Positions 4,061 to 42,781 are shown, counted from the stretch's first letter. The stretch is DNA of 43,334 nt from Nitrososphaeraceae archaeon (GCA_035297365.1 DATGZA010000078.1:1-43334), one strand, 5' to 3'. The notes: generated by a model from the sequence alone, not told the origin. Numbers and translations: made by a program.

Positions 4061-4133
4061 TAATATTTTGAATCCATTTTTAGTAGTAATATCACAACGG
4101 AAACCACTGGCCCCATTGAACTCTGGGTTCCAA
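4061..4133 (+). repeat. att-like site A (arm type L2 plus core CCACTGGCCCCA at 4104-4115)
   Basis: 4061-4113 is identical over 53 bp to the reverse complement of 26365-26417. Confidence 0.85.
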
Positions 4134-4226
4134 TCTTATTTTTACTAGAATGTATTTATGTATTAATCAATCCTTGCAAGAATTTTGAATATAATAGTAA
4201 TATTGAAAATAATTTTATAAAGATGA

Positions 4227-4270
4227 AAAGGTCCTGTCGTATTTGAATCCTTCGATATAGCTGGACCAGC
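4227..4270 (-). repeat. Degenerate att-like site
   Basis: The minus strand GCTGGTCCAGCTATATCGAAGGATTCAAATACGACAGGACC aligns loosely with ACTGGTCTCATTTGATAGAAGGGTTCAAATCCCACTGGCCCC (15962-16003). Confidence 0.4.
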
Positions 4271-4315
4271 TAATTATCTGTTATGTAGTTTCATTTTGTA
4301 TAAAATGGCTCATTA

Positions 4316-4500
4316 TTATTTGTCCATTATGATTTTGCTTTTAAGTTGGTTAAATTCTTCCTCTGTAATTATTCCTTGGTCTCTAAGTTTTGCAAATTTT
4401 GTTAATTCATCAGCAATAGAATTTGATGGGGGCAATGGTTGTTGATTATTGGTATCTATATCTATTGGTCTTGTTATTTTTTGTGTTGGTATTAAATTTT
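4316..4500 (-). pseudogene. C-terminal SHOCT-domain gene remnant
   Basis: The minus strand translates …SNSIADELTKFAKLRDQGIITEEEFNQLKSKIIMDK*, a typical SHOCT motif. No intact start is visible. Confidence 0.7.
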
Positions 4501-4603
4501 TCGGAATCTTATTATTTTGTAGGTATTTTTGAAATCAGGATAAGTCAAAAGTTTATCCTGATCTAAAAAAATTGTGATAACAGCACAGTATTTTCATGAT
4601 TAT

Positions 4604-4801
4604 TCAATCTTGAATAAACTCAGAATAAAAATTATCCTTATCTGATTGTAATACATGTTTTGCAGTAACTAAATAAATAATATATTTGTCATCCACCTTT
4701 ATTCCAACAAAAAATCCAGTACCTTGAGCAACATATTTCTCATTTTCACGGGTAAAAATAAAAGTGATACATTTCTTTATTTGAGCAAGGTAATGTTCTT
4801 C
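4604..4801 (-). pseudogene. Trypsin-like serine protease N-terminal remnant
   Basis: The minus strand translates …YVAQGTGFFVGIKVDDKYIIYLVTAKHVLQ…, the GTGF and TAKHV catalytic-His region, then stops. Confidence 0.65.
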
Positions 4802-4829
4802 AATTATAAATTATTTTATTGCATCTTTA

Positions 4830-5075
4830 TACAAGCAGGTTCATATACTTGAATTGGATATTATATTTTGTAAGAACAAGAGCAGGAAAATAGCATAAAT
4901 GTCTTTGAAACTCTGTACAACAATAAGAATAATTCAAAACATTCCTCATACAAAGAATATTGAAATTATAAATAACTTGAATATATGAAAATTAATAGTT
5001 ATTCAGAACATCATCAAAATAATAATTTAAAAGTTATAATAAAACTTGATAATTTGAGAAAAGAGATAAAAGATA
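4830..5075 (+). pseudogene. Gene 5' stub, copy 1, probably integrase N-terminus
   Basis: Direct repeat of 10385-10660. It reads MSLKLCTTIRIIQNIPHTKNIEII…SEHHQNNNLKV with a frameshift. The integrase identity is recalled from Nitrososphaeraceae integrase N-termini and is not verified. Confidence 0.55.
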
Positions 5076-5204
5076 ATAATGTCAGTTAATTAACATAAGA
5101 ATTATCATAAGAGAATCATAAAGCGCAGATTAGATACTAATATAATTGCTACATATGATAATTAGATAAAAAAACAGAAATAGTACTATTTTTATAATTC
5201 TTTA

Positions 5205-7457
5205 TTGTCTGTGGAAAGTTTTGAAGCAGTAGTAATAGGTTCTGGATTTGGGGGAACAGTACTTACACTTTCTTTAGCCAATAAATTTGAGTCCGATAAT
5301 ACCTCAAATAATATTGACAAAAAGGTCTGTCTTTTAGAGAGAGGACAATGGTGGTTGTCACATGAAATTAATTATACGCCGCCTGGGGAAAGAAGTCCAT
5401 CATATCATACAAATATGAGGGAATTCCTTGATGATAATAAAAGACCCTATCATTTTTGGCCTTATCCTGATACTATAAGGGGAAATATAGAAATTGCATC
5501 AGCTGCCCGAGCAATAAGTAAGACAGGTTTGTATGATTACAGGGTTCTTGGCAACGTTCATGTCATAGCTTCTAGTGGTGTGGGTGGTGGTTCTCTGGTG
5601 TATTCTAATGTTACTATTGAACCGGCAGATCCAAGTATTTTTGTAAATTGGCCTACACAAAAAATACTTGATGATCCTTTAGACAAAAAATTTTCTTATA
5701 AAGAAGTATATGGTAATGATGCATCGCTATATGCAAATAACTCTTTGGACATTGACAAAATTGTAGATATAGATACGGAGAATATCGATTATTTTGATAT
5801 TGCAAGAAATTTCATTGGTGTTAACAAAATTACTACCAATTCAAGTTTGACAAAGAATAAACTTGAAAAGACAAAAGTTTTTCAAGAAGCTGGGCAGGCC
5901 CTTTTAGATGCAGGTAATACAAGTATTATCAATGTAATCGATATTGCAGGCAAAAAAATTGGTGATTTTGATGCAGATCTCTCAATAACTAATGTTCCTA
6001 CTGGTACATTTAGTTTTGATAAAAACAATATGAAAAACTCTCATCCATGGATATCTGAAATTAATAAATATTCTTCCATAACACAGACAAATGAATGTCA
6101 GCGACAGGGAAGATGTAATTTAGGCTGTATTCCAGGTGCTAGACACACATTAAATAAAAGATTATTTAACGTAATACATCCTCAAACTGGCAATCCAAAA
6201 CCACTTGAGATTAAGGAATTGTGTGATGTTTATGATATTGAATTTGTGAATGGTGAAGGATATAAGATAAGTTATTTTCAATATGATAAAACTACTGAAA
6301 ATAGAGTACAAAAACAAATAATGACAAAGATCTTGGTAATTTCAGCAGGTTCATTAGGTTCTACTGAATTACTTTTGAAATGCAAGGAACGTGGTCATCT
6401 ACAACTAAGCAATATTCTTGGAAAGAGATTCTATACCAATGGAGATTTGTTTGCATATATGACACTTAATAAGAAAAAGATTGATATCACAAGAGGACCG
6501 ATTAATACTTCCCATATATCATTCAAAAGTCCTGGAGATAGTACATATTACACTATAGAAGATACGACAATCCCAAAGATAGTAGCACCGGTGTTTGCAA
6601 AAATACTCGAACTGAATGCTAATTTGCAGTCAGTAAATTTTGGCAATATTATTAATATTTTGATCAATAACTTATCTTTGTTACCAGGATTAAACCTATC
6701 CAATCTTTCTGGCTTGTTATCATTAAACCCACTGCAATCCTTAACATCATTGTTTACCATGATTTGGAACAATAATAATATCAGAAATTTTCTTAGTCAA
6801 AATTTAAAAAGTATTTCTCCTACAGATAATTCTACTCGGAAATTCTTGGAAGGACTATTAAATTCGGTAACCATCGATATCAAGGATCAATTTGCATCTC
6901 CAGAAGAAAGGATGTCAAAGTTTTTTGTATTTTCGTGTATGGGAAGAGGTGAAAATCCAGGTACTTTAAAACTTAAAGCAAATTGGCAAAACATGGAAAA
7001 TACAAATGATCCAGGAGAAAAATTGTCTGTAGATTGGCCTGCCAATGCTAACAATAATGTATTTACAAATATAATGGTTGGAGTTAAACAATTAGCAGGA
7101 AAAATAGAACAAGGTGGAGATACACGAGTATTTACTCCTCTGTGGAACTTTAACAATCCTCAAAAAAGCACTTCTGTAATTCTTCATCCATTAGGCGGTT
7201 GTAACATGGGAGACGATGTTAACAGCGGAGTAGTAAATAGCTATGGTCAGGTATTTTGGAATGACGGTTCAGCAGATAAAACAAAAGTTTATCCCAATTT
7301 ATATGTAGTTGACGGATCAATAATACCTGAACCATTGGGCGTAAATCCTTCATTGACTATATGTGCTGTTTCTTTTAGAGCGGCCAAGCATATTTTGGTA
7401 GATATTTCTGAAGTACCATTATCATCAAAAGAAGCAAATAAATTTTTACCAAAATGA
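5205..7457 (+). CDS. GMC-family FAD oxidoreductase, cholesterol-oxidase-like (GMC1)
   Basis: VIGSGFGG dinucleotide-binding motif, LERG, GVGGGSLVY, CQRQGRCNLGC, HPLGGC and YVVDGSIIP…GVNPSLTI. Confidence 0.9.
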   Translation: MSVESFEAVVIGSGFGGTVLTLSLANKFESDNTSNNIDKKVCLLERGQWWLSHEINYTPPGERSPSYHTNMREFLDDNKRPYHFWPYPDTIRGNIEIASAARAISKTGLYDYRVLGNVHVIASSGVGGGSLVYSNVTIEPADPSIFVNWPTQKILDDPLDKKFSYKEVYGNDASLYANNSLDIDKIVDIDTENIDYFDIARNFIGVNKITTNSSLTKNKLEKTKVFQEAGQALLDAGNTSIINVIDIAGKKIGDFDADLSITNVPTGTFSFDKNNMKNSHPWISEINKYSSITQTNECQRQGRCNLGCIPGARHTLNKRLFNVIHPQTGNPKPLEIKELCDVYDIEFVNGEGYKISYFQYDKTTENRVQKQIMTKILVISAGSLGSTELLLKCKERGHLQLSNILGKRFYTNGDLFAYMTLNKKKIDITRGPINTSHISFKSPGDSTYYTIEDTTIPKIVAPVFAKILELNANLQSVNFGNIINILINNLSLLPGLNLSNLSGLLSLNPLQSLTSLFTMIWNNNNIRNFLSQNLKSISPTDNSTRKFLEGLLNSVTIDIKDQFASPEERMSKFFVFSCMGRGENPGTLKLKANWQNMENTNDPGEKLSVDWPANANNNVFTNIMVGVKQLAGKIEQGGDTRVFTPLWNFNNPQKSTSVILHPLGGCNMGDDVNSGVVNSYGQVFWNDGSADKTKVYPNLYVVDGSIIPEPLGVNPSLTICAVSFRAAKHILVDISEVPLSSKEANKFLPK

Positions 7458-7576
7458 AAGTAAATGAATGAACTTCTAAATTAATAGATGAGATATAACA
7501 CAATTTATCAATCTAAACATCACTTCATTTAACACTACTCTTGAAACATATATAATTCATTATCAAATATCAAATG

Positions 7577-7637
7577 ATTTCTATTAAATATGGTAACATA
7601 GATATTTCAAGGTATGATATTTTTCGGCGCCGAAAAA
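7577..7637 (+). repeat. 61-bp repeat ending in the palindrome TTTTTCGGCGCCGAAAAA, copy 1
   Basis: 58/61 identical to the reverse complement of 31195-31255. Confidence 0.85.
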
Positions 7638-8373
7638 TCATTATAAATTAGAATGTATTTCATTTTTAAAAAATATATATAAAATTAAGGAGATTTCAAT
7701 CAAACATAAAACATAAATGGTTACTTTAATTTCAATATCTATAGCAAGTAAATTTAGACCAATAATATAAATAATTAATGAATGTTTTTAAGATATGCAA
7801 GAGGATTGGCACTAACCATTTAATACTGGTATATTTTGAAAATTTAGTTAGAGATATTCTAAAATTGAGGCTTGTAAACTCTGATGAAAATCGCTTTTTC
7901 TTAAAGTGCATTCTTTGTTTATCCTCTCTGTTCATTCAATGAAACAATATCACGAGCTACATATGGAATTTATTGTAATTATCCTGATTGATATATGATA
8001 GTTAATATATAAAATAAGATGTTATTTACAATCAAATTCAATTATAATAAACATAATCCATACAAAAAAGACCTATAATCAAATACTTGTCTCATTTTTT
8101 AAGAGTGACTAATAACACTCTTAGAATCTGATAAGGAGGTAAAAAATTAACGATCAGGTAGCTGAAAAAAATCGAGGACCATATCTATCAGATAACCATT
8201 CACTTAAAGGTTCAAATCATTTTTACTCTAATGATCCTGTTGGATATTAAGCTGCAATTAGATTTTTTTAAAAATTATAAAATATAAATATGATTTACAA
8301 TGAGGCTAACAAAATATTAAATTTAGATACTTGATTTAAGGAGAAAATTGTTTATTAATAATGATTTACTAAT

Positions 8374-10131
8374 TTGACAATAATATTGTCAACATCTATT
8401 TTTGATATAAAAAAAATTTTAAAAGATGGGAGTTGGTTTAAGGATAATCATGGAAGGTACCTGTTATTTAGAGGAGTGAACTTTGGTTCTAGAAGTAAGT
8501 TATCTCCTTATATTCCAATAGTTTCATTAAATACACATGATATTAATCAAGTAGATTTACAAAAGGAAATTAATCTTGTAGAAAAAAATCTAGATCATTT
8601 AAAGGATCTTGGGTTTAATGTAATTCGGTTATTGATTATGTGGAAAGCAATAGAACCTTTTCCTAATCAACATTTAGAAGAATTGTTACCAGAAGGTAAA
8701 AATTATTTGGATATGATTAAAGTAATAATTGATACCCTTCATGAAAGAAGGCTTTTTGTTATTCTGGATTTTCATCAAGATATAGCTCATGAAGTTTATG
8801 GTGGAGATGGATTTCCAGATTGGGCATTGGCTATTGATGAATTGCATTGGAAACCTGTTTTTCCATTATCAGAAATTCAAAAAAGGACATGGTATTTGTC
8901 TTATTATATCAATCATTTAGTAAAACATACATTAAGATCTTTTTGGAATAATAGTTTAAGAAATATAGAATTTGGTCTTGAGAATTATCCTGTCAGAACT
9001 CATTTAGAAAAAACAATTGGTCAAACAATAAAATATTTTAATCAACTTTATAGTGACTCTAATGGTCCTGTAATTATTGGGATAGAACCATTTAATGAAC
9101 CTCACCAAGTAGGATTAGAAAGAAGAGATTTTGAGTCTAAAGTTTTGAGAGAATTTTATATCAATGTAATCAACGAGATAAAAAAATTTGATGATAAAAT
9201 TTTTATTTTTATGGAACCACGTACAGAATGGAATATTTATACATCACCATTTTCTGATTCAATAGTAGATCGGACAGAACCAATATCAGAACAAATTGAA
9301 TTGGATATTGATAAAAATTTTCTATTTAATCAGAACGAAATTTTTACTTTCTTACCTACAGATAATGAATTTCTGGATTACTTTAAAAAACAAGGCGTAT
9401 TTTCATTTCATTATTATGATCCACAGACACTATCCAGCTCTTTAATAAATCATCCAGATGACATGAACAAAAAAAAATTGCAATGGCCACAACTTTTTCA
9501 GAAGATGAAAGACGAGGCAATTGCTAGAAATCTAATTCCATTTCTAACAGAATTTGGAGGGAGTGATGATTGGAAAAATCTTGAAACTAATCTGGAACCT
9601 AGCGATGTTTATAAAAGAGAACAAATACGTGCATATATGGATCTACAATTTAAACAGATAGAGGATTATCTTCTGAATTCTACTTATTGGAACTTTGATC
9701 TTTATAATACAAAAGACGAAAAAGATAATTGGAATTTAGAAAATTTCTCTTTATTGGGTCCTAACGGATCTCCAAGGAACTTTGATATTGTGGCTCGTCC
9801 TTATCCAATATGTAGTTCAGCAAAACCAAAATTGCTATATTTTGATTTAAAATCTAAATATGCAGCAATAATTTTGGGAGGTCATGTACAAGACAAACCT
9901 ACAATATTATACGTACCAGCTAAATACCATTATCCGAGTTTTAGAATTTGGGTAACTAGTTCTGATATTCAATGGAGAAAATTGGAACAATTATTATACT
10001 GGTATCCAGATAAAAGTAAACAATTCAATCAGATTATTATAGGACCAAATAAGGAATTAGATATTAATCTATTGCCTTTTCAAGTAAGAGAATTAATGAA
10101 ATATACAACTTACACATTTAAGTTTAATTAA
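8374..10131 (+). CDS. Glycoside hydrolase family 5, endoglycoceramidase/EGCrP-like
   Basis: FKDNHGRYLLFRGVN, LGFNVIRL, LDFHQD…GGDGFPDW, acid/base NEP, HYYD, nucleophile TEFG and C-terminal RPYP. Confidence 0.88.
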   Translation: MTIILSTSIFDIKKILKDGSWFKDNHGRYLLFRGVNFGSRSKLSPYIPIVSLNTHDINQVDLQKEINLVEKNLDHLKDLGFNVIRLLIMWKAIEPFPNQHLEELLPEGKNYLDMIKVIIDTLHERRLFVILDFHQDIAHEVYGGDGFPDWALAIDELHWKPVFPLSEIQKRTWYLSYYINHLVKHTLRSFWNNSLRNIEFGLENYPVRTHLEKTIGQTIKYFNQLYSDSNGPVIIGIEPFNEPHQVGLERRDFESKVLREFYINVINEIKKFDDKIFIFMEPRTEWNIYTSPFSDSIVDRTEPISEQIELDIDKNFLFNQNEIFTFLPTDNEFLDYFKKQGVFSFHYYDPQTLSSSLINHPDDMNKKKLQWPQLFQKMKDEAIARNLIPFLTEFGGSDDWKNLETNLEPSDVYKREQIRAYMDLQFKQIEDYLLNSTYWNFDLYNTKDEKDNWNLENFSLLGPNGSPRNFDIVARPYPICSSAKPKLLYFDLKSKYAAIILGGHVQDKPTILYVPAKYHYPSFRIWVTSSDIQWRKLEQLLYWYPDKSKQFNQIIIGPNKELDINLLPFQVRELMKYTTYTFKFN

Positions 10132-10340
10132 ATGCTTCTCCTTATTTTTTATAGTGTATCATAATTTTTATCACATTTTACAAATTGGAAAATAAAGCTT
10201 GGTACAAAAAAACAAGATAATTGTGTACTTGTACATTTCCGTACTCTTTTTCTCATAAGCGGGTTATTCCAGTTGAGTTTTGGTTTATTTTCACATTATA
10301 TCAAATTACAGAATAAATTTAAATGTTATTTTCATAACAA

Positions 10341-10402
10341 AGTCCAAAAATTGTGTCAAATTTGTTTCACCTCCTACTGACCCCATTCTATAAGTGGGTT
10401 CA
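10341..10402 (+). repeat. att-like site B (arm L1 GTCAAATTTGTTTCAC plus variant core CTACTGACCCCA)
   Basis: Shares the L1 arm with the sites at 13136, 17726-17771 (minus) and 42736. It is followed by TTCTATAAG-TGGGTTCA. Confidence 0.75.
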
Positions 10403-10462
10403 TTTACTTTGAATTTGATAATATATTTTGTAAAAACAATAAGGAGAAGAGAAATAGTCTAA

Positions 10463-10660
10463 ATGCCATTAAAATTATCTACAACAATAGGAAAAATCCA
10501 AAACATTCCCAATTCCAAAAATATAGTGATAATAAACGAATTTCTTGAATATATGTGATGTAATGGTTCTTCAGAGCATCATCAAAATAATAATTTAAAA
10601 GTTGTAATAGTATTTGGCAGTTGTTTGGGAAAAGATAATTCATGTATGTTATTATTGTCA
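10463..10660 (+). pseudogene. Gene 5' stub, copy 2, probably integrase N-terminus
   Basis: MPLKLSTTIGKIQNIPNSKNIVIINEFLEYM*CNGSSEHHQNNNLKVVIVFG with an internal stop; lies about 80 bp downstream of site B. Confidence 0.55.
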
Positions 10661-10922
10661 TCTATATCACTATTAAAATTCTCAATCATCTGAACATCCT
10701 AAATAAATATATTGTTTTGATTTATAACTATTTTTAAATAATTTATTCAAATTTTATTTCCGACATTTCGATTCTATAGTAATATATTGTTTCAATGAAT
10801 ATCATAACAAGTAACTGTTGAATTTAGGGGATAATCTATTATTATAAATATCCTATATAATCGAAAAATATGACTGTATATTCAATGTAATGTTTTTAAT
10901 ATCAAATAATTTTTCTTTATTA

Positions 10923-11807
10923 TTACATTTTTTCCAGTGATTGCCAAACTCCAGGTTGAATTCTTTCATCGATATATTTCCATATTCTAGGGGATATCTC
11001 CAATTCTGAGAATCTCTTTCTTAGTGATGGATGCATGCTAATATATATTCCATGACTAGTAATAATCTGGTTAGGCTTTGCTAGTTTAGTGAATTTTGCT
11101 GCCATACTAATACCGTAACCTAAAATATCGGTATAGGATTTTTCACCTAAAATATAATGAATAATTGAATGTTCACTAGCATCTATCCCTATCCTTACTT
11201 TCAAGGGGTCATAATTATACCGTCTTAAAATAGGATTTATCGCTTGGTCAATAATAGTAATCATATGAAATGCACAATTTATTGCGGAACTATAGGAAAC
11301 AGAATCGTTTGATTCTATAGGAAAATATATTATCACGGCATCTCCAACATATTTTAATATCTGTCCATTAAAACTTGAGGCGGCAACCGACATTTCTTGT
11401 GTAAACATCTGTATTATTGTAGCTAACTTGTCGACTGAAAAATCTCTAGTCATCAAAGTAGAATCAACCAAATCAACATAAAGTGCTACAAGTTTCAATT
11501 TAGAACCCACATGCTGCTGCAAAAACTGTTCAGCCATTTCTATTTTTGGCTTAAATCTAGAACCCTTTTCAAATGCTTCCAAGATTCTTGTTTCAGTTTC
11601 GGCAACGTATGTTTGAATATCTGTTATTTGTGGAAAAGTATTATTATCATCCAAAATTGTTTTGTCTTTATCTGACATGTATCTCGACAATTTACTTTCT
11701 CTTTTGCAAAAGATTATTTCATTCGTAATTGTAGATAACAAATCGACAAAATCCAATTCCTTTTCTTTAAAAAATGAATTATCAGAATTCAATTTGCGAA
11801 ACTTCAA
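10923..11807 (-). CDS. Class III adenylate/guanylate cyclase domain protein
   Basis: ALYVDLVDST (first metal Asp), LKYVGDAV (Lys plus second Asp), KVRIGID and DILG. Confidence 0.85.
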   Translation of the reverse strand: MKFRKLNSDNSFFKEKELDFVDLLSTITNEIIFCKRESKLSRYMSDKDKTILDDNNTFPQITDIQTYVAETETRILEAFEKGSRFKPKIEMAEQFLQQHVGSKLKLVALYVDLVDSTLMTRDFSVDKLATIIQMFTQEMSVAASSFNGQILKYVGDAVIIYFPIESNDSVSYSSAINCAFHMITIIDQAINPILRRYNYDPLKVRIGIDASEHSIIHYILGEKSYTDILGYGISMAAKFTKLAKPNQIITSHGIYISMHPSLRKRFSELEISPRIWKYIDERIQPGVWQSLEKM

Positions 11808-12043
11808 GTTTCTCTAATCTAAAAGAAATCAATACTTACATAAAAAGCCAACCTATTATCTAAAAAAACCACTATCGCAGAAAACCTGATGTAAAGTTGA
11901 TAATTAAAGAATAAGACAATCTATTGTTTACTGCTCTCATTTAATAACTGTTCTAATGAATAAATAAATTATATTCTATTATATTTGAGAAACAATTAAA
12001 GAGTTGAACATAGTAGAATGTACTAGGAAATTAGTGTGTTATA

Positions 12044-12886: not shown

Positions 12887-13135
12887 CCATATTTTTAGCT
12901 ACTATTTCCATATAATGGATTTAGATTAGAAATTAAGCTTTTCTTGCAATCAAAAATTAATTACAAAAAATATTGCTTTTCAAAATGTGAGTTAAATAAA
13001 ATATTTTGTGATTTTAACAATAAAATGAAAAAGATGAATGTATTATTATTTTAAAAATAATATTAATAGTAATTGCTTAGAGAAATTACTATCAATTTGG
13101 TTAACATTTTTATAAAAATATAATGTTTATATAGA

Positions 13136-13175
13136 AGTACAAAAAATTAAGTCAAATTTGTTTCACAAACCACTG
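13136..13175 (+). repeat. att-like site C (arm L1 plus truncated core AAACCACTG)
   Basis: AGTACAAAAAATTAAGTCAAATTTGTTTCACAAACCACTG matches the minus strand of 17733-17771; similarity ends inside the core. Confidence 0.75.
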
Positions 13176-16004: not shown

Positions 16005-16055
16005 TTACTAACCTGTGTCTTTATTTAGACCCATTCGTAATATATTATGTAAATA

Positions 16056-32256: not shown

Positions 32257-32394
32257 TTTTGTCTAACTTGATTAGGTTAATCTGATAAATATTGTTTTCT
32301 CCTTTTCTCATGTTAGCCATAATCTATTATCTCATGACAATCAAAAGTTTCAAAATAACTTCGTTTTTGTAAATCTATTGTCAAATATTTAGTT

Positions 32395-33642: not shown

Positions 33643-33661
33643 AATTTTTATGGTCGAACAA

Positions 33662-34375: not shown

Positions 34376-34523
34376 AATAACCTAAATTTACGTGTATGAA
34401 AGAAGAATCTTCTATTTTATTCATTACGATGTCACTTTAGCTAACTCGTTATAAAGAAGAAACATCATCATAATACTATGTTTTTGCAAGTTATTATTAA
34501 TAGTACTAAAACAATATATCTAT

Positions 34524-35474
34524 TTATCTTTTAATTAAATAGCACCCACTTAAAATTACTCCTACTGCAATAACTTGATAAATCGTAATATTTTCATTTA
34601 AAAATACTTTTGCAAATATAATACCAAATATTGAAGATGTTGAAAATAATAATATTGTTTTTACCGTTCCAATTCTTTTAAGACCGTGAAGAAAAAAGAA
34701 TAGAGAACCTCCAATTCCCATTGAGCCTGCAAATACTAAATATGACACATGAATGATGTCAATATCAAATTCCGCAAGACCAAAGACAATAATAGTTATA
34801 ATAAAAAGTAATGATCCTCCAATTAATGTTTTTAAAACTATTATTTTGGGTATGTGAATAGTTTTGGAAAGAATTCTACTTATATTGTTGTCAAGAGCCC
34901 AAAAAAGTGCCGAACCCACAACAAGAATATTTCCTATGTTTAACTCTAGAAAAGAATTTGATGAAAAAAATTGCATATTTGTAGTAAGAATAACAATCCC
35001 AATTAAAACAAGTATCATTGCTAATATTTCACGTTTGATTAATTTTTCATTAAAAAATACAATAGCTAAAAGAATTGAAAATAAAACTTCTCCACTGATT
35101 AGTATTGAAGAGTCCGATGCAGAACTATTTGAAAGACCATAAAAGAAAAGTGATGGTGCTATAACTGCTCCGCAAAGACTTGTAAGTAAAAGCAAAAAAT
35201 AACTTTTATTATTATTTGTCCATTTACTAGTGTTTGAAGGATTTGTAGATTCTAAAGTAGAGCTACTAGAATTAGTAGCTGAAAATTTCATAAATGGGAT
35301 TAAACTTAATCCTGCAATTATATATGTTAGAGATGAAACTGATAATGCATTTAGATCCTCAAGAACTGGCTTTGTTATAGTAGATACTGAACCAAACAGT
35401 ATGGCTGCAATAATTGCAGATAGATAACCAATATGTTCGTTTTTTAATAGGTGTATAAATGTCATAAAAATCAA
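34524..35474 (-). CDS. EamA/DMT-family transporter
   Basis: Two EamA repeats (FFNEKL, FLNENI) and about 10 TMs. Confidence 0.88.
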   Translation of the reverse strand: MIFMTFIHLLKNEHIGYLSAIIAAILFGSVSTITKPVLEDLNALSVSSLTYIIAGLSLIPFMKFSATNSSSSTLESTNPSNTSKWTNNNKSYFLLLLTSLCGAVIAPSLFFYGLSNSSASDSSILISGEVLFSILLAIVFFNEKLIKREILAMILVLIGIVILTTNMQFFSSNSFLELNIGNILVVGSALFWALDNNISRILSKTIHIPKIIVLKTLIGGSLLFIITIIVFGLAEFDIDIIHVSYLVFAGSMGIGGSLFFFLHGLKRIGTVKTILLFSTSSIFGIIFAKVFLNENITIYQVIAVGVILSGCYLIKR

Positions 35475-35525
35475 AAAGATTATTTATACTATAAAATCCT
35501 AAAAGGAAGAAAAGAAATAATTTAT

Positions 35526-36374
35526 CTAACTTGATTTTAAGTTAAATAGAATCTGTAAATTAGGATGTATGTTGGTATGAACGATTTTCATAACATTCAT
35601 CGGTTTCTCCTTATTGTTTATCGCATTATCTAGTTCTAATAATCCATTTTCGAGTTTTTTAAGGTAATCCTGAGTTTTGGTATTATTTCCTGCAAGTGAA
35701 GATGGTGAGATTTCTTTATAATATTTATCTAATGCTTTATTAGAAAAGGCTGATGCACTTTCATAATTAGAGAAATTTAAAAGACCAGATTGACTAACAG
35801 TGTCAGCCGTCGTTGCTAATTTATGTATGTTTGACATGTTGGTTAAATCTATTCCAACATTAAAGGCATCACCGTAATTTTGAAGTGCTGTATCTACAAT
35901 GCTTGCTAATATAAGTGCCTGAATAGTTGAATTATTCAATTGTTCTTGATCTATTCTAGTAGATATTGCTTCTTCTAATATTGCATCAATAGTTTCTACT
36001 GTATTAACAAGCTGTGATTTATCAGGAGATTTAATTTGTATCAATAATGTATTTAATGTATCATCTAACTCGGTTGCGATTCTCTCATTCCTTTCTGAAA
36101 GTTCATCTTTTGTATGAGAATCATAATTTTGAAGAGCGATATTCGCATGTATTTGACCTGAACTTTGGTCACTATTGCCATCGGTAGTGTTTTCTGCAAG
36201 GGCTGATTCAACTTTTATTTTTTCTACAATTGTTAGAAAATGTGCGCTCTCATCCGGAGAGAAATTGTGAGCAAAAGAGTTTTGGAAAGAATGAGAACCG
36301 AGACCAACAGAAATTACAGCAAAAGTGGTTAGCAATATTGTAATAGGCATGTTTTTCAAATTTACCAAAGACAT
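35526..36374 (-). CDS. Secreted helical hypothetical protein X1
   Basis: Signal-like N-terminus then SFA|HNF, DLTNMSN, and C-terminal VHTNIHPNLQ; paralogue of 39225..40124. Confidence 0.8.
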   Translation of the reverse strand: MSLVNLKNMPITILLTTFAVISVGLGSHSFQNSFAHNFSPDESAHFLTIVEKIKVESALAENTTDGNSDQSSGQIHANIALQNYDSHTKDELSERNERIATELDDTLNTLLIQIKSPDKSQLVNTVETIDAILEEAISTRIDQEQLNNSTIQALILASIVDTALQNYGDAFNVGIDLTNMSNIHKLATTADTVSQSGLLNFSNYESASAFSNKALDKYYKEISPSSLAGNNTKTQDYLKKLENGLLELDNAINNKEKPMNVMKIVHTNIHPNLQILFNLKSS

Positions 36375-36467
36375 TCTTTTTGATTTTTATTGTTTAATCA
36401 AATAAGAATTTTATCATTTCTTTGTTAAATTTCAATTTATCTCTCAGGTCTATTTATGTAAATTATT

Positions 36468-37493
36468 TTATTTCTTGATTGGTTCCAATTCAAATCTGGC
36501 ATATGAATCTCCACCTTCTTTTAAAATATTATTAGTAAATTCTTTTAGTTTGAAATTAGCAACAATTATGTGTACGAATCTGTTATTTTGGTCGGTGAAG
36601 TCATCAATCAATATTGCATTTTGTGGGATTTCCAATCCATTTAATTTTCCTATAAATGATGAAACTTTAGATAATGGTGTATAATCTTTTGGTATCACAA
36701 GTTCCTTATGTAAATTAACGACCTGATTTACATAATTCAGGTCCCATGTAAACGGCATTTTAAATGAAATTTTTGAGGAATCTCTGTCATAAACGAAGTC
36801 CTTAATTTCGTCGTAAAATGTCTTTACTATTAAGGTCAAATTACCAAAATTATTGTTGTTGCCGCTGCTATCGTTAGAATATACTTCATCTATTACAAAT
36901 GGAAAATTCTTGCCAATACTTATAAATAAATCCACTTTCTTGTCCGAGCCCAGTTTTAGACCTTTACTTGATTTTTCAAGAATTACAGATATATCATATA
37001 ATCCACCATCTGCAAGTAATTTACTTTTCAGTGTAATTGGATTCTCTGAACTTACTTTTACTAATTCATTTTTTGATACATTTTGTTGTTCTTGTATTCT
37101 CGACGATAGAATTTCATGTATAAGAGAGCTATTTGAAGGAATAAGATTTGCCGAAACTATTCCATCAATAGCATGAAATCGTTGATCAATTATTGTTTCA
37201 TTCTTAAATTTAGCTATTATTCTATAATTGATATCATTTACAGTTTGATTTGTTTTTTCGTCATGCGCTCGGATAATTAGAGTAGGTTTTTTATCATCAT
37301 TTAAAAATGGAGGTTCAAGAATTCCTTCAATTGCGATTTGTCTTCCAGAAAAATCAAAAGGAAGAGATTCATCTCTACTTAAACCATGACCATATATTTC
37401 ATCGAATAAATTAACGGAATTGGTAAAAATAATTGAAAAAATAAAAGCATATGATAAGAATGAAAAAAATATAATATTAAAATTAATGATCAT
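36468..37493 (-). CDS. Secreted/membrane-anchored hypothetical protein Y
   Basis: N-terminal TM then IYG|HGL, GGLY and FKMPFTW; resembles thaumarchaeal surface proteins (recalled, not verified). Confidence 0.75.
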   Translation of the reverse strand: MIINFNIIFFSFLSYAFIFSIIFTNSVNLFDEIYGHGLSRDESLPFDFSGRQIAIEGILEPPFLNDDKKPTLIIRAHDEKTNQTVNDINYRIIAKFKNETIIDQRFHAIDGIVSANLIPSNSSLIHEILSSRIQEQQNVSKNELVKVSSENPITLKSKLLADGGLYDISVILEKSSKGLKLGSDKKVDLFISIGKNFPFVIDEVYSNDSSGNNNNFGNLTLIVKTFYDEIKDFVYDRDSSKISFKMPFTWDLNYVNQVVNLHKELVIPKDYTPLSKVSSFIGKLNGLEIPQNAILIDDFTDQNNRFVHIIVANFKLKEFTNNILKEGGDSYARFELEPIKK

Positions 37494-37778
37494 GATAATT
37501 AATTTTCGAATAATACCAAATATAATATTATAGAAGCCAAAATTTATGGAACGAAATCTTTGTAGATATCGCTGTTAAAGAAATTTAAATTATTTTACCA
37601 AATATTTAGTAAAAGTTAGTTCTTCTGCTTTGAAATTTTATATTTATAATTAGCTATACTAATTTACATAAATTTATTTTTATTTATTTTTGATATTTGT
37701 TCTGGTATTGTACTAGAGAAATGTGTTATAATTTTCCAATGCAATCTTAATATAAATATAAAACTCAATTATTATTAT

Positions 37779-39035
37779 ATGGAAAAAATTCTCAAATTAA
37801 CGCTAATATCCTTTACTTTGATAATTTCAGTTTTTATATATACTGATTTCATATATTCTATTTATTCACAAGAATTTGAGTTCAATCCAAGAAACTATTA
37901 TGATTTTCAAGAAGAAAAAATAGAACAAGAAAATCCAACAACAGAAACTTCAAATTTTAAAGATAAATTTGATATCACAACAGATTTTGAAAGTACAAAA
38001 AATAAACAAGCATCAAAATCTGTAGATCCAGATTCTGAAGATACAGATAAAGAAACTTGCATAGAAGACGGTCAACTTCAACAAGCAGCAGCATTAACCT
38101 TATCATCATCTAATAGTGATATGAATTCTGATTCTTATACTACAGATTTCCATTTTGTAAAAAAATTTGATAAGAATGGAACTCTTGTAGATAGTTGGGG
38201 TACTGTATGTCCAAAAGATGGTCAATTCCTGCATGCTCATGGAATAGCCATTGATTCAAAAGACAATGTGTATATTAGTGATGCAGAAAAGTGCAACATT
38301 CAAAAATTTGATACAGATGGAAATTTTGTTGCTGAATGGGGAACAAAAGGAACAGGTCCCGGTGAATTTTTGCAACCTGAAAGTATGACTGTAGATTCTT
38401 TAGATAATATCTACCTTGCAGAATATTCTGGTAAAAATATTCAAAAATTTGATAGTAATGGTAAATTCCTAACAATGTGGGGTCAAGAAGGATCAAGGAA
38501 GGGTGAATTCAAAAAACCATGGGGTATTGCGGTTGATTCAAAAGATAATGTCTATGTCAGTGATCAGGTACTTCCCCGGGTACAAAAATTTGACAGCGAT
38601 GGTATATTTATAGACATGTGGGGGAAAAAAGGCTCAAAGAAAGGTCAATTTGTACATCAACATGATATAACGGTGGACCCTAAAGATATCGTTTATGTTA
38701 CTGATGGTAGACAGAATTCTAGAGTAGCAGTCTTTGATACTGAGGGCAATTTTATAAAACATTGGGGAAGTGAAGGGAAAGATGAAGGTCAGTTTATTGA
38801 GAACCATGGTATTGTTGTTGATTCAGAAGGTAATGTCTATGTAGCCGATACAAGAAATGTTAGAGTTCAAAAATTTGATCAAAATGGTAACTTTCTAACA
38901 ATGTGGGGATCACTTGGATGTAAAGATGATCAATTTCTAATTCCTCATGACATCGCGATGGACTCTAAAGGCTATATTTATGTTACAGATAGCGGAAAAT
39001 CGCACTTTAGAGCAAACTATGATTGTAATCAATAA
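37779..39035 (+). CDS. NHL-repeat six-bladed beta-propeller protein, exported
   Basis: Six repeats of WG.KG…G.F..P.GIAVDS..NVYV.D…R.QKFD, after an N-terminal TM and an acidic linker. Confidence 0.92.
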   Translation: MEKILKLTLISFTLIISVFIYTDFIYSIYSQEFEFNPRNYYDFQEEKIEQENPTTETSNFKDKFDITTDFESTKNKQASKSVDPDSEDTDKETCIEDGQLQQAAALTLSSSNSDMNSDSYTTDFHFVKKFDKNGTLVDSWGTVCPKDGQFLHAHGIAIDSKDNVYISDAEKCNIQKFDTDGNFVAEWGTKGTGPGEFLQPESMTVDSLDNIYLAEYSGKNIQKFDSNGKFLTMWGQEGSRKGEFKKPWGIAVDSKDNVYVSDQVLPRVQKFDSDGIFIDMWGKKGSKKGQFVHQHDITVDPKDIVYVTDGRQNSRVAVFDTEGNFIKHWGSEGKDEGQFIENHGIVVDSEGNVYVADTRNVRVQKFDQNGNFLTMWGSLGCKDDQFLIPHDIAMDSKGYIYVTDSGKSHFRANYDCNQ

Positions 39036-39224
39036 TAAGAATTAGCAGTATACTGATTGACATAAAATTGTTAATTAATAGAACTTTGAGTTTTATTTTA
39101 TTTTTTTGTTAATATTTGAACATTTGTTACTAATAATTTTAATCCACAATACTGGGTATACCATTTCAGTTGACAAGATATTTGTCAAAACACTTTTATT
39201 CACTTAGCATTTTTTGTTCACATT

Positions 39225-40124
39225 GTGCGAGATCAAAAGTATGTTATATTGTACTTCGTAACGTCATCTATTTTATTGTCATTACTATTTTCGGTTTCTT
39301 TGTCTCTGTTTAATATAAAGTACGAGGCTTTTTCACATAGTTTTACTTCTGATGACTCGATAACATTTCTTGCATTGGCAAAACAAGCAGCAATTGCACT
39401 AGAACTTGCAAAGAAGAATTTTCCACAAAATGTAACAATAGCAATGGAACAATCTGACAAGGCTGCGAGTTTAGTTGGTGATGTTTACTACGTTGATGAT
39501 AATATAGTCGATGATAACGATTTTATTAAAAGATACGAAAAGGAAATGTCCAGTAAAAACAGTACGATTCACTCCTTGTTAGCGGCTGATCTAATTGATC
39601 AGATTCTGCGTGAATACGCGTCAGCTATCGTTTTGGATGTTGATTTGACCAACATGTCTAACTTGGCTGTTTTGGACAATTTCAAAAAAGCTATAAATTC
39701 TGGCATGCAAATCAATTATTCGAGTCCTAGCTATAAACAATATCAAAAACTCATTTCAGCAAATAATACAATTCTCAACTATGACGATTATCAAACATCT
39801 CTTGCATTAACAACGGAAGTGAAAAATATATTTAATTATCTAAAGTCGATAGACCAAAATTCTAATAAATCTAAATCTGATTCTTCGTTGTTAGACAAAT
39901 TGGAAATGGATATAGATACTTTGCATAATATTTTGTTAAACAATGGATCTGCTGGCGAGCTAATGAGATTGGTGCATCTAACTATACATCCTGTATTGCA
40001 AGAGGCATTCAATCTGAAAACTAAAATGAATATGAATATGAATATGGGTATGAATATGATGGATGGACAGAATATGAATATGATGGATGGACAGAATATG
40101 AATATGAACATGACCCAACGATGA
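39225..40124 (+). CDS. Secreted helical hypothetical protein X2 with Met-rich tail
   Basis: AFS|HSF, DLTNMSN and VHLTIHPVLQ as in X1, plus a tail MNMNMNMGMNMMDGQNMNMMDGQNMNMNM. Confidence 0.8.
   Translation: MRDQKYVILYFVTSSILLSLLFSVSLSLFNIKYEAFSHSFTSDDSITFLALAKQAAIALELAKKNFPQNVTIAMEQSDKAASLVGDVYYVDDNIVDDNDFIKRYEKEMSSKNSTIHSLLAADLIDQILREYASAIVLDVDLTNMSNLAVLDNFKKAINSGMQINYSSPSYKQYQKLISANNTILNYDDYQTSLALTTEVKNIFNYLKSIDQNSNKSKSDSSLLDKLEMDIDTLHNILLNNGSAGELMRLVHLTIHPVLQEAFNLKTKMNMNMNMGMNMMDGQNMNMMDGQNMNMNMTQR
40026..40112 (+). repeat. In-frame tandem repeats (ATGAAT hexamers and two 24-bp units) encoding the Met-rich tail
   Basis: ATGAATATGATGGATGGACAGAAT occurs twice, flanked by ATGAAT repeats. 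Confidence 0.9.
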
Positions 40125-40366
40125 AGCTTGTAACCATGAAATATATGTCAAATATTTTTTATAGGGATTGCCAGTTCTGAAATTATATTAATTCTTAATT
40201 ACATGCAAAACTTACGAAATTACTCCATTTAAATTATTTTTTCGTCAAGACAATAGAATTGAATTTTTCATTTATAAGTTGCTATAATCATAGTAAAACT
40301 TAACGACAACTTTTTGAAAAACCTTACAATAAAAAGATTCTGATTATTGTTGGAATATGAAAATCT

Positions 40367-40411
40367 AGAATAAATATACAGAATAAATATACAGAATAAA
40401 TATACAGAATA
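40367..40411 (+). repeat. 13-bp tandem repeat AGAATAAATATAC, about 3.4 copies
   Basis: Exact copies at 40367, 40380 and 40393, with a partial copy at 40406. Confidence 0.85.
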
Positions 40412-40421
40412 TATAATTGGA

Positions 40422-41246
40422 TTGAATAAATATAACACATTGACATCATATTATCATATGCAACATTGTATAAAGATAGTTTTACCTAAATCTTTATTAT
40501 TTATTATTTCTGTTTTTATTATAAGCAAGAATGTTATCATAAAAAGAATTAAATCTAAAATACTTTCAAATATCCCGAATCACAACATAAATAACATAGT
40601 TGGTAACTTTAAACCCTACATTCTAGTAACTCTATTATTTTTTATGCTTTTTACTACAATGATGATATCAGAGATCGATACAGCTTTTGCAAAAAAAGAT
40701 TCAAAAAGAAAAACAATTGATGTGTGTTGTAGTTGGGGGAATTCAATAGGCGATGGAGTATTAACATATTCTATCGAGAAGGGGGAATCAGAATTGGCTA
40801 AAATTGTAAAATCAGCTATTAAAGAATGGCAGAAAGCATTAGGGGAATCAGTACAATTCAAGTATGTAAAAGTTGATGACTCTGACGCAGATATTAAAAT
40901 TGAATTCCAAAAGGGCAAAGGGGTAAAAGTCGGTAAAGCTGTAACATTCTTTGATAATAACGGAAAAATAGATCATGTGGAAATTTCACTTTCTAAAAAA
41001 TCATATGGTCAAAGTTTAAGTCTCTCTCTTTTAGAACATGTTGCAAAACATGAGTTTGGTCATGCCCTTGGTTTAGGACATGCAAATTTCAAAGAATCTC
41101 TTATGTCTGCTCAAGTAAATAAAATTGTACCAAAAATATCTGCATGTGAATTGGAATCTGTCAAGTTTGTTAATAATTGGAAGTCTAATGATGATAAATC
41201 TTCCAAAACTCTAGATAAAGATAGTTTTAGATGCAAGAATAAATAA
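40422..41246 (+). CDS. Matrixin-like zinc metalloprotease, paralogue 2
   Basis: HEFGHALGLGH plus SLM; CCSWG…DGVLTY is shared with 33662..34375. The true start is probably further downstream. Confidence 0.88.
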   Translation: MNKYNTLTSYYHMQHCIKIVLPKSLLFIISVFIISKNVIIKRIKSKILSNIPNHNINNIVGNFKPYILVTLLFFMLFTTMMISEIDTAFAKKDSKRKTIDVCCSWGNSIGDGVLTYSIEKGESELAKIVKSAIKEWQKALGESVQFKYVKVDDSDADIKIEFQKGKGVKVGKAVTFFDNNGKIDHVEISLSKKSYGQSLSLSLLEHVAKHEFGHALGLGHANFKESLMSAQVNKIVPKISACELESVKFVNNWKSNDDKSSKTLDKDSFRCKNK

Positions 41247-41439
41247 CTTTTGGGAAAATATGTCATTATGAATAATCAGATACATTTTCTTTTTTTATCA
41301 ATTTTACGGGTATATTACAATGACATTTCTAAAATGTTTTATTTTTTTATTTCATAGTAATAGCATTTTCATATGATTTAGACCAATATATTATTATAAA
41401 AATAATTTTATATTTTTTATTTGTTTCAATATTCTTAAT

Positions 41440-42080
41440 AGTACAATTAACTTGGACTATTTCACCTCTAATATGGGATAGAAATTTCTTTCTAATTTTT
41501 ACGTTATACAGATAAGTGAATAACTTTATCCAATTGTATACATAATGTAGATTAAGATCCTTAATGCTCTTAAGGGAAAATGGATAATAATCATCAAAAT
41601 ATTCAGTCCTATCCTTGAAATAATGCATAACTATTTCATTCAAACTTTTGTCTAATGGTGAATGTAATAGATATTTTAATGCAAAAAAGTAAATCCTTTT
41701 GGATAATACGTACCTCTCTGAATGTAAACTGTCTGTCTAGCCTATCTGGACACAAGAGCTCTAATAAAATTCTCTGCTACAAACATGTTTCTTTCTTCAG
41801 AAGATATACGTAAAAGCATTTATAAGACGATTTACGGGGATCGATAACAAAAGTCACGGTCTACTATGTGAAGAATGCTTTCAGCTATTATCAATGTAGA
41901 AATGTTGTTGGTTATGTTTATTAGAAAAATATATCTTTGTATGAAATTTCATATATTAACATGATTTATTTTGATGGTTAGACATTACTATCTTTTGCAG
42001 AGACACATAATAGACCTATACAATGAAAATAAAGATAAACATAATACATAACAAAGTGCACATTCTGTTTCTAAATGAAT
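41440..42080 (-). mobile_element. Heavily degraded IS6-family remnant
   Basis: ORF 41347..41643 (MHYFKDRTEYFDDYYP…YNWIKLF…GEIV) and the upstream EERNMFVAENFIRALVSR match the 25181 element; interrupted by unrelated DNA. Confidence 0.75.
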
Positions 42081-42164
42081 AATAATAACTTGATAATAAA
42101 TTTAGAGCTAAATTTACTTGAATGAAGGGGTCTTGGCTAATTATCTTTTCTTATTCAAAAAACA

Positions 42165-42199
42165 ACTGGCCCCACTTTATAGAAGGGTTCAAATCCCAC
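42165..42199 (+). repeat. att-like site H: ACTGGCCCCA-CTTTATAGA-AGGGTTCAAATCCCAC
   Basis: Aligns with 15962-15996. Confidence 0.75.
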
Positions 42200-42377
42200 A
42201 CATTGAGCCTAAAAGCAGTACTAAATCCATTTTAAGTTATCTTGTCTCATGTCTAATCTTTATAAGATTTGAGTTGGATCACATATTCAATATACCTATT
42301 TGAAAGTAATTATAAAAAAATAGCTAACTAAATAGTATCACTAAATTATATATAGTAAACAAATGTTTTACTAAAAA

Positions 42378-42572
42378 TTAGTTGGCTCTTTTTTGTTCAG
42401 ACCAATATATTTTATTATTCTTTCCACACTCATTGCATTTATGTAATGTTTCAATATCATCTCTATTAATTTTATATTTATTTGCTTTTATATGTATATT
42501 ATCTGGTTTTACAGCAATAAATTCAGCTCCACAATAAATACAACTAAAATATTTAATTGTATTAGATGGCAT
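42378..42572 (-). CDS. Small zinc-ribbon protein
   Basis: CIYC…CNEC; ATG 42572 is preferred. Confidence 0.65.
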   Translation of the reverse strand: MPSNTIKYFSCIYCGAEFIAVKPDNIHIKANKYKINRDDIETLHKCNECGKNNKIYWSEQKRAN

Positions 42573-42735
42573 GAAAAATCTATATATCATCTTCTTAATC
42601 TAAATTTACTCTAGATTCTTTAAAATAGCGAAGATATTCCTTATTTTTATAGTTGTTATTGTCATTTTATTTTAAAAAAAATCGATCTATTTCAAGTATT
42701 CAATTTCCTAAATATTACACACCTTTTTTTAGAAA

Positions 42736-42781
42736 GGGACCAAAATTTACGTCAAATTTGTTTCACATCCCACTGGCCCCA
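42736..42781 (+). repeat. att-like site I (arm L1 plus ATCCCACTGGCCCCA)
   Basis: GGGACCAAAATTTACGTCAAATTTGTTTCACATCCCACTGGCCCCA is a close match to site E. Confidence 0.85.

Follow-up and report, generated by a model that had tools for sequence, protein, structure and literature searches.

The stretch of DNA considered here, hereafter the window, is 43,334 nucleotides (nt) long and is the entire contig C78 of a draft genome (G000) of a Nitrososphaeraceae archaeon (GCA_035297365.1, DATGZA010000078.1:1-43334). It is divided by copies of a 12-nt core, CCACTGGCCCCA, which is the 3' end of a tRNA-Pro(GGG) gene from the same genome. The cores are very probably attachment (att) scars of serial Campbell-type integration at this tRNA gene, followed by decay of the integrases, occasional core-to-core recombination, and rearrangement outside the att sites. 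The window belongs to a tRNA-seeded genomic island of an ordinary type, if more crowded and scrambled than usual, and not to a new kind of recombination system.

The lineage is an uncultured soil genus of ammonia-oxidising Nitrososphaerales, and the genus is known only from metagenome-assembled genomes (MAGs). The G000 draft consists of 110 contigs (2.52 Mb, 30.5% G+C). Comparisons were made with G017, a well-assembled relative (3.5 Mb, 10 contigs), and the survey of the genus took in 24 further members, along with 16 genomes from the order's other genera.

Core sites and the cognate tRNA gene

The core has eight matches in the window at two mismatches or fewer, where 0.43 are expected, and none of 100 shuffled sequences reached eight. 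The flanks of seven of the eight belong to a few recurring families. Four of these cores are perfect (4104(+), 15993(+), 17726(-), and 42770(+)), two carry one mismatch (26363(-) and 42163(+)), and one carries two (10374(+)). The eighth match, at 4427(-), has unrelated flanks and is probably due to chance. Two more sites are incomplete. At 13170, the left arm called L1 is followed by CCACTG only, i.e., by half a core. At 4230-4271(-), an inverted and decayed site consists of a T-like arm and a core remnant, with about 74% identity to the T-like arm-core unit by hand count and 7 of 12 core positions retained; its 16-mer match has three mismatches, a count that 2 of 100 shuffles reach, and is weak alone. 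All nine sites listed in the original prediction for this DNA exist, with position 42165 corrected to 42163.

Three kinds of left arm precede the cores. The L1 15-mer TCAAATTTGTTTCAC is present in four exact copies (0.00 expected), which is the predicted number, and each lies 3-4 nt before a core or half core. The second arm, L2, does occur twice (4040-4103 and 26375-26426), but the copies are 96% identical over 52 nt rather than identical over 53 bp as had been claimed. The third arm is a T-arm-like unit found at 15950-15992 and 42157-42199. Every core in the window is intergenic and separates unrelated genes, in line with the suggestion that the sites fall between unrelated gene blocks.

A table of 60 distinct sites (61 rows, one G012 site being doubled) shows that the conserved block around the core begins at about -10 (TTCAnATC) and ends at +2 (TT). 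The core half TGGCCCC recurs in inverted form at -34 in 17 sites (in the L1 arm) and at +22 in nine sites (in the Ra right arm), and in direct form at -29 in six sites (in the T-like arm). In the L1-core-Rint arrangement, TCACA and TGTGA form inverted repeats on either side of the core. These copies and repeats are plausible candidates for integrase-binding elements, judging by their sequence and placement.

No tRNA gene was found in the window, as had been noted before, and no Rfam family matched it. Across G000, a scan allowing one mismatch gave 15 cores on six of the 110 contigs (C22, C25, C38, C63, C72, and C78). On C63, positions 71127-71222 (9569-9664 of locus L001) hold a 96-nt intron-bearing tRNA gene with the terminus ...GTGGGTTCAAATCCCACTGGCCCCA. 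By hand, the gene folds into an acceptor stem (GGGGCTA/TGGCCCC), a D arm, an anticodon stem (CCAGC/GCTGG) with the loop CTGGGGC, a T arm (GTGGG-TTCAAAT-CCCAC), and the discriminator A. The fold requires the removal of 20 nt from the 5' side of the anticodon stem, which leaves a canonical 76-nt tRNA-Pro(GGG). When 364 trial excisions were given to ARAGORN, it called a tRNA in 186. The largest class, with 68 calls, was Pro(ggg), to which all 15 of the 20-nt excisions starting at positions 23-37 belong. Since the scan is permissive, the identity of the tRNA rests mainly on the hand fold. Without excision, ARAGORN gives an impossible four-base anticodon, and Rfam gives only a weak match to the tmRNA clan, its tRNA model being silent. 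The other proline tRNAs called by ARAGORN in G000 are Pro(tgg) and Pro(cgg), with no other Pro(ggg), and relatives carry the same intron-bearing gene.

The identity between cores and the tRNA gene covers the T loop, the 3' strand of the T stem, the 3' acceptor strand, and the discriminator A. It extends over 12-23 nt depending on the arm type, reaching 23 nt at junction 4 of the window (15950-16054) and 35 nt with two mismatches at a site on G017 contig C6. The proposal of a tRNA 3' end, with proline or tryptophan as the guess, has thus found its gene: the tRNA-Pro(GGG) on C63 carries this end.

Arrays and integrases

The clearest picture of what the cores represent comes from G017. There, the tRNA-Pro(GGG) gene (C8 91508-91603) is followed by 15 cores (at most one mismatch, 11 perfect), all on the plus strand from 91592 to 172938, a distance of 81 kb. 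Their left arms (L1, L2, and T-like) and their right arms are of the types present in the window. When 117 sites were considered, 29 of the 30 neighbouring pairs at most 40 kb apart were co-directional, with a median spacing of 4.7 kb. The co-directional pairs and the G017 array are the signature of serial integration at one site, and the array bears out the prediction that repeated integration built the region.

Upstream of the tRNA, G000 and G017 align at 93.8% identity over 9.7 kb, up to the final base of the tRNA and no further. The C63 contig itself terminates 336 nt past the gene. The sequence after the tRNA varies: it is the right arm Rf in G017 and G012, and Ra in G000, G014, and G018. 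In G001 (C11), the tRNA is followed by a different flank, of which the contig holds 274 nt; this flank reappears after an L1-core in G024 (C119), and is therefore likely to be the native downstream sequence. Ra, which follows the tRNA in G000, was considered as the native flank and rejected, because it recurs inside arrays and the G001 flank differs. A search of G000 with the flank from G024 and G001 returned matches to the T-like repeat only, so the distal end of the island is not located there.

The 15-mer ATCCCACTGGCCCCA was found in 20 of the 24 other genomes of the genus and in none of the 16 from other genera, while its reversed control was absent everywhere. A 22-mer spanning L1 and the core matched 52 stretches of a public collection of species representatives, all of them titled as Nitrososphaeraceae or Nitrososphaerales MAGs.

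The right arms correspond to three integrase lineages: Rint to IntA, Rf to IntB, and Rc to IntC. As the original prediction had noted, integrase starts lie close to four cores in the window (10463, 16056, 17705, and 26342), at distances of 20-77 nt. Among the sites of the genus, the distance from the core to the integrase start is 21-67 nt for the IntA and IntB genes or stubs that follow Rint and Rf cores, and 71-80 nt for the IntC stubs that follow Rc cores.

The window copy of IntA (16593-17705, minus strand) is the only catalytically complete integrase in the window. Its catalytic residues R173, H299, R302, H325, and Y333/Y334 fall in invariant or near-invariant alignment columns; the roles were assigned by inspection of the alignment, with the lysine left unassigned. 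Against the Pfam family PF00589, IntA scores 13.7 bits, below the cut-off of 27.1, while the homologues P0022 (73% identical) and P0004 score 30.2 bits, above the cut-off, and 18.5 bits. In PHROGs, it matches the phrog_1 integrase (3.7e-5); against PDB, phmmer and profile searches gave E-values of 0.1 or worse. At E 1e-3 or better, 2,994 proteins are homologous to IntA, and some of them bear PF00589 or an integrase name. The AlphaFold2 (AF2) model has a pLDDT of 72. Its best Foldseek match in PDB is XerA (9e-8), followed by XerH, Cre, IntI, Tn1549 Int, and lambda Int; 43 matches have E 1e-3 or better, with TM-scores of only 0.33-0.56. As modelled, IntA has the two-domain fold of a tyrosine recombinase, and its catalytic domain is complete. 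The window copy lacks the C-terminal coiled coil of about 55 residues that is present in homologues of 410-430 residues. Its true start is likely to be the ATG at 17663 (M15), where the homologues begin, rather than 17705. A comparison of the IntA alignment with viral contigs gave 26 pattern matches, none of which was confirmed.

The first possible IntA start comes 21 nt after the end of the core, with an in-frame TAA just upstream of it. It had been proposed that the att site also forms the 5' region of the integrase gene. This does not hold, because the core is outside the reading frame and an in-frame stop intervenes. Given that the core is upstream of the start codon, IntA is not a partitioning integrase of the type found in Sulfolobus spindle-shaped viruses (SSV).

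IntB is represented in the window by a stub of 204 residues (16056-16670, plus strand), which is 52% identical to IntA residues 18-202 and ends after the GIRLGAW box. The IntC open reading frames (ORFs) follow Rc cores and begin with MPxKLSTTI. In the window, they are reduced to a 31-residue stub at 10463, which by tblastn corresponds to residues 1-59 of a family of 446 residues, and to a frameshifted stub at 4899-5056. Full-length IntC homologues have 430-450 residues, and many are named integrase or recombinase XerD by one source. The Pfam evidence for IntC is weak, consisting of Phage_int_SAM_4 alone (E 0.024-0.07). PHROGs and the PDB profile search gave no match, hhalign relates IntC to IntA with a probability of 1.8%, and the IntC model is poor in the catalytic part, with lambda Int as the best fold match (E 0.48).

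Intact relatives of IntA and IntC are found 55-210 nt after other tRNA genes, reading away from them. The tRNA genes concerned are tRNA-Thr on G000 C12, tRNA-Arg on G017 C10, an uncalled tRNA on G017 C8, and tRNA-Met on G012 C12. At the first of these loci (G000 C12 33265-34678), an open IntC-like gene, 24% identical to P0123 over residues 24-435, lies about 210 nt beyond tRNA-Thr(cgt); the locus is probably another integrated element.

At the tRNA-Pro(GGG) cores, the integrases are in decay. In the table of 60 distinct sites, nearly every ORF that follows an Rint, Rf, or Rc core is truncated. G000 has the one catalytically complete IntA and stubs on C18, C22, C25, C64, and C78, and a search of the genome found no further IntA or IntB fragments. 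None of the 12 close IntA/IntB copies (at least 50% identity to IntA) in five relatives is full length without stops, and the G017 array, with its 8-9 integrase remnants, likewise lacks an intact copy. Of the cores adjoining the 13 L1 arms of G000, four are perfect, four have one or two mismatches, and five have at least five. Integrase truncation and core mismatches together indicate that the sites behave largely as eroding scars.

These observations suggest the following course of events. Small circular elements would have integrated repeatedly into the 3' end of the intron-bearing tRNA-Pro(GGG) gene, producing attL and attR sites and hybrid junctions. The attP site of each element would consist of a left arm (L1, L2, or T-like), the core, and a right arm (Rint, Rf, or Rc), the last of these paired with its own integrase lineage, and the gene for a tyrosine integrase would start 20-80 nt after the attP core. 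Crossover within the 12-23 bp shared with the tRNA would regenerate an intact tRNA gene and place the integrase gene just downstream of it, reading away, with a partial tRNA copy at the far end. New arrivals, whether at the regenerated tRNA or at any older core, would push earlier elements outward and build head-to-tail arrays. Older integrases would later decay to stubs, leaving cargo bounded by cores. The surviving cores could remain substrates wherever a compatible integrase is present, which would account for different partners across the same core in near relatives. The window would then be an island fragment in which at least one further non-att rearrangement, at about 16.6 kb, has caused two runs of modules to converge.

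Modules, exchange, and alternative explanations

The window can be divided as follows.

1-4035: P450, MIP channel, low-molecular-weight (LMW) phosphatase, methyltransferase, and HxlR regulator genes; ends in L2
4040-4165 (+): junction 1, with L2 at 4040-4103, a perfect core at 4104-4115, and the right arm Rb at 4116-4165
4116-4815: Rb unit, which holds the inverted decayed site
4230-4271 (-): inverted decayed T-like arm and core remnant
4819-5056 (+): Rc-type element end, core lost, with the frameshifted IntC stub 4899-5056
4819-10373: module with the Rc remnant, IntC stub, GMC-oxidoreductase-like gene 5205-7457, GH5 gene 8374-10131, and L1
10341-10640 (+): junction 2, with L1, the core variant CTACTGACCCCA at 10374-10385, and an Rc arm with the IntC stub 10463-10558 (to 10639 by tblastn)
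10386-13169: module with the IntC stub, a cyclase-like gene 10923-11807 (-), a rhodanese gene 12044-12886, and L1
13126-13227 (+): junction 3, with L1, the half core CCACTG at 13170-13175, and the recurrent Rg flank; right boundary of the module common to G017
13228-15992: module with an SDR gene, one ORF, and a T-like arm
15950-16054 (+): junction 4, with the T-like arm at 15950-15992, a perfect core at 15993-16004, and an Rf arm
16056-16670 (+): IntB stub, in the module span 16005-16586
16587-16648: non-att breakpoint, where two convergent truncated integrase genes meet
16593-17705 (-): IntA, predicted tyrosine recombinase with a complete catalytic domain
17676-17780 (-): junction 5, with L1 at 17738-17780, a perfect core at 17726-17737, and Rint at 17676-17725
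17738-26362 (-): module with an IntA 5' remnant 26259-26342, repeats resembling insertion sequences (IS) or miniature inverted-repeat transposable elements (MITE), Hsp20, a thermosome subunit, and an ArsR-like regulator; ends in L1
26259-26430 (-): junction 6, with L2 at 26375-26430, the core CCACTGGCCCTA at 26363-26374, Rint, and a 27-residue IntA remnant (26342)
26375-42162 (-): core-free block with CadD, a GMC-oxidoreductase-like gene, MFS, two M10 peptidases, EamA, an NHL-repeat protein, and unassigned ORFs; ends in L2
42157-42199 (+): T-like arm, which holds CAACTGGCCCCA at 42163-42174, with no full core after it
42727-42781 (+): junction 8, with L1 at 42727-42769 and a perfect core at 42770-42781; similarity to G014 and G017 ends at the core

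The modules are 0.6-16 kb long and hold several genes, on both strands. At least five of them begin with their own integrase gene or stub, and therefore represent decayed autonomous elements rather than cassettes. A plus-strand run (4104-16600) and a minus-strand run (42160-16600) converge tail to tail at 16587-16648. Alignments with relatives stop at 16586 and resume at 16649, and the joint is no att site; it holds the near-palindrome GTCCAGAATATTTTGGAC, through which both reading frames run. Orientation switches back at about 42160, junction 8 at 42770 being on the plus strand.

Several repeats and paralogues are superimposed on this layout. A repeat of about 715 bp is found at 17916-18628, 25176-25898 (inverted), and 41455-41802 (partial). 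It is numerous in every genome of the genus and spread over many contigs of G000, contains an ORF with a weak match to DDE_Tnp_IS240 (E 0.0025), and looks like an IS remnant or a MITE. At 23980-24541, a 22-24-nt unit like TTGACTAAAACAGGTTTGAGAC is repeated about seven times, and five of the copies are spaced 66-74 nt apart. These could be a decayed array resembling clustered regularly interspaced short palindromic repeats (CRISPR) or a set of binding sites. The two GMC-oxidoreductase-like paralogues (5205-7457 on the plus strand and 28678-31032 on the minus strand) point in the same direction relative to their own module runs, and just downstream of each gene lies one half of a 61-nt match with 95% complementarity (7577-7637 and 31195-31255). 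The P450 gene (1-1157) and the ORF 36468-37493 are 35 kb apart and relatively inverted in the window, and paralogues of the two are adjacent on C48 (25876-28660) and on G017 C6 (179748-182539), with 73-80% identity.

The comparison with relatives shows that similarity breaks at cores. The module 10374-13227 is present in G017 (C8 202860-205708) at 95% identity, inverted and 30 kb past the array. Across its left core lies L2 in G017 and L1 in the window, and both copies end at the same split core. The module was considered as a recent transfer and this was rejected, because the chromosomal background of G000 and G017 is itself 93.8% identical and the part that differs is the neighbour across the core. 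In G014, window 42326-42769 is joined via the core to window 26362->25887, which makes the joint a recombinant of junctions 8 and 6; identity in the shared segments is 92-98%, and the sequence to the right of window 42781 is absent from the G014 assembly. G014 also has L1-core-Rc where the window has L1-core-Rint-IntA, the L1 side being 98% identical. With a background of about 94%, these exchanges are rearrangements since a recent common ancestor and not evidence of recent horizontal transfer.

Alignments of the window with loci of relatives have 87 free ends. Of these, 17 are no more than 45 nt away from a core, in zones that make up 2% of the window length, although the loci were chosen for cores or window matches, so that the count is biased and overstates the effect (alignments below 250 nt or inside the 715-bp repeat were dropped). 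The suggestion that synteny would break at the sites is thus supported at loci chosen around cores, where the partners across the cores also differ. The secondary recombination proposed along with it is plausible.

Several observations weigh against serial integration as a complete account. The window is not physically joined to the tRNA in this assembly. G017 has cores away from the tRNA as well, on C3, C5, C10, and distal C8, so not every core belongs to an array abutting the tRNA. Three junctions in the window are inverted relative to the others, and simple accretion does not yield inversion. They need an extra inversion or rearrangement, placed at 16587-16648 and at about 42160; a single inversion is not enough to make the window co-directional again unless further deletions are invoked. 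The Ra and Rb arms are short conserved units of 100-200 nt (window 4116-4271; C63 71223-71414) bracketed by inverted sites. They have no integrase remnant and end in an inverted, decayed T-like arm and core, which the model does not explain. The L1-CCACTG-Rg junction breaks in mid-core. The cyclase-rhodanese pair is present in eight more distant genomes (78-86% identity) with no convincing core in the DNA around it, so some of the cargo may be ordinary genus genes caught in rearrangement. None of Pfam, PHROGs, hhalign, the PDB profile search, or the fold comparison identifies IntC as a recombinase. Finally, there may be a mis-join in the draft contig. As a separate observation on the mid-core junction, L1-CCACTG followed by one shared unrelated flank recurs at window 13170-13227, at G000 C11 around 31704, and at G017 C8 around 202860.

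It is tempting to speculate that the cores are still live, and that any compatible integrase arriving with a new element, or the surviving IntA, moves, swaps, or inverts integrase-less modules in trans. This is unlikely. If it were true, the tRNA-Pro(GGG) island would be an archaeal cassette-exchange platform shared by three unrelated integrase lineages, and the short Ra and Rb units, with a core on one side and an inverted decayed core on the other, would mark where dedicated non-autonomous elements end.

A related reading, close to the comparison with integrons and shufflons made in the original prediction, is an active platform in which modules without an integrase are constantly cut out, put back, and inverted at the cores by a resident enzyme, which would make the array a programmed device for shuffling genes and not a set of relics. 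The exchange of partners exactly at cores between genomes about 94% identical would fit such a platform, as would the survival of one IntA with a complete catalytic domain, the inverted core pairs in the window, and the Ra and Rb ends, which are conserved for 40-200 nt ahead of unrelated cargo. The cores of the G017 array are also mostly perfect despite the broken integrases. However, no conserved integrase is found beside the tRNA, where the first element varies by genome, and all but one of the 30 neighbouring pairs are direct, i.e., head to tail, rather than inverted. The modules are multi-gene units, several with an integrase gene or stub of their own, and not one of the close IntA/IntB copies in relatives is whole. 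Cores adjoining L1 arms decay (five of 13 beyond four mismatches), the change of orientation at 16.6 kb lies away from any core, and the window IntA is without its C-terminal tail. A resident platform is accordingly quite improbable, and the analogy fails.

The inverted layout might instead be an assembly or binning artefact of a metagenome-derived draft, to which we give similarly little credence. The G000 draft is fragmented, its island contigs are short and break at these repeats, and the 16.6-kb joint, in which two homologous integrase genes lie tail to tail around a near-palindrome, was seen in no relative examined. Against this, the two integrase genes are only about 70% identical in DNA, and junctions 6 and 8 share little past the core, whose 12 nt are too few for an assembler to be misled. 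Words sampled from window 10300-17800 are present at 0.89-0.99 in four sequencing runs of one study (X1-X4), which are not independent and of which X1 may be the source; in runs X5-X14, from at least eight other studies, the fraction is about 0.43-0.44. No inference is drawn from these fractions on habitat or mobility. That the motif is a dispersed non-coding repeat, of the MITE or repetitive extragenic palindromic (REP) kind, resembling a tRNA end by chance and involving no integration, is extremely improbable: L1 and T-like arms do occur without a recognisable core on C11, C14, C18, and C38, and the separate 715-bp repeat is abundant in the genus, but the identity to a real tRNA runs from 12 to 23 nt and, at the G017 C6 site, to 35 nt, the array begins exactly at the tRNA, integrase genes follow the cores at fixed orientation and distance, and the flank that follows the tRNA in G001 recurs after an L1-core in G024.

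Relation to known systems

Serial integration at tRNA-Pro(GGG), as favoured here, shares features with several known systems. Like integrons and shufflons, the window combines a tyrosine recombinase with many repeated sites that bound gene-carrying segments. Unlike an integron, it has no platform integrase, attI, or Pc promoter, and its sites are derived from a tRNA rather than being attC hairpins. An integron cassette consists of one promoterless ORF and an attC hairpin, whereas the modules of the window are multi-gene and up to 16 kb long. A shufflon needs inverted sites, while those described here are direct and intergenic, and do not lie inside a gene whose end is swapped.

In streptococci, integrative elements and integrase-less cis-mobilisable elements (CIMEs) accrete at one att site. 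There too, tandem elements are split by att copies, and decayed members keep their att sites without an integrase; by analogy, the modules of the window could in principle be moved by the integrase of a neighbour. The streptococcal system differs in being bacterial and conjugation-linked, usually with two or three elements per array.

The closest analogues are the tycheposon islands of Prochlorococcus and the tRNA-integrating elements of archaea. In the former, tyrosine-recombinase elements are found at particular tRNA genes, where successive integration at the same site pushes older elements inward, and the islands hold partial tRNAs, fragmented integrases, and adaptive cargo for transport, stress, and nutrients (10.1101/2020.12.28.424599). 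The host described here is an archaeon and not a cyanobacterium, the integrases are unrelated by the tests run, and there are 15 cores in 81 kb at one tRNA, where one or two elements per genome are reported for Prochlorococcus (10.1101/2020.12.28.424599).

The integrated elements of Thaumarchaeota and other archaea enter the 3'-distal part of tRNA genes, including intron-bearing ones, and their att sites are short (mostly below 26 bp); for tyrosine-recombinase elements, repeated use of a single site is known to give rise to arrays (PMC6563490). The window resembles them in its tRNA 3'-end target, its short att sites, and its one-site arrays. It differs from the elements of that survey of 20 genomes, which in the available text are single or in pairs, with tRNA-Pro as the target of a casposon only; the same portion of the text does not contain the words 'Nitrosocosmicus', 'hotspot', or 'accretion' (PMC6563490). 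SSV-type integrases are likewise archaeal tyrosine integrases acting at tRNA genes, with fragments beside att sites, but their att site is inside the integrase ORF and integration splits the gene (PMC7253208). Here, the core lies 20-80 nt upstream of the start, and the stubs begin after a core, none ending at one. The literature searched on ammonia-oxidising archaea, supplementary tables not covered, yielded no description of such arrays. What is particular to this case is the uncultured lineage, the density of cores, the meeting of three integrase lineages on one tRNA-Pro(GGG) end, and the poor recognisability of the integrases.

These results document integrase families that standard profiles barely recognise. 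They also show that an intron-bearing tRNA-Pro(GGG) is missed by common tRNA finders, which is a caution for annotators. A practical marker of island boundaries in fragmented MAGs is the L1 arm in combination with the 12-23-nt tRNA-Pro(GGG) tail. The finding also explains how the flexible gene pool of uncultured soil ammonia-oxidising archaea is assembled and turned over, a pool that here includes a thermosome subunit, Hsp20, metal- and arsenic-related genes, GMC oxidoreductases, a GH5 glycosidase, peptidases, and transporters.

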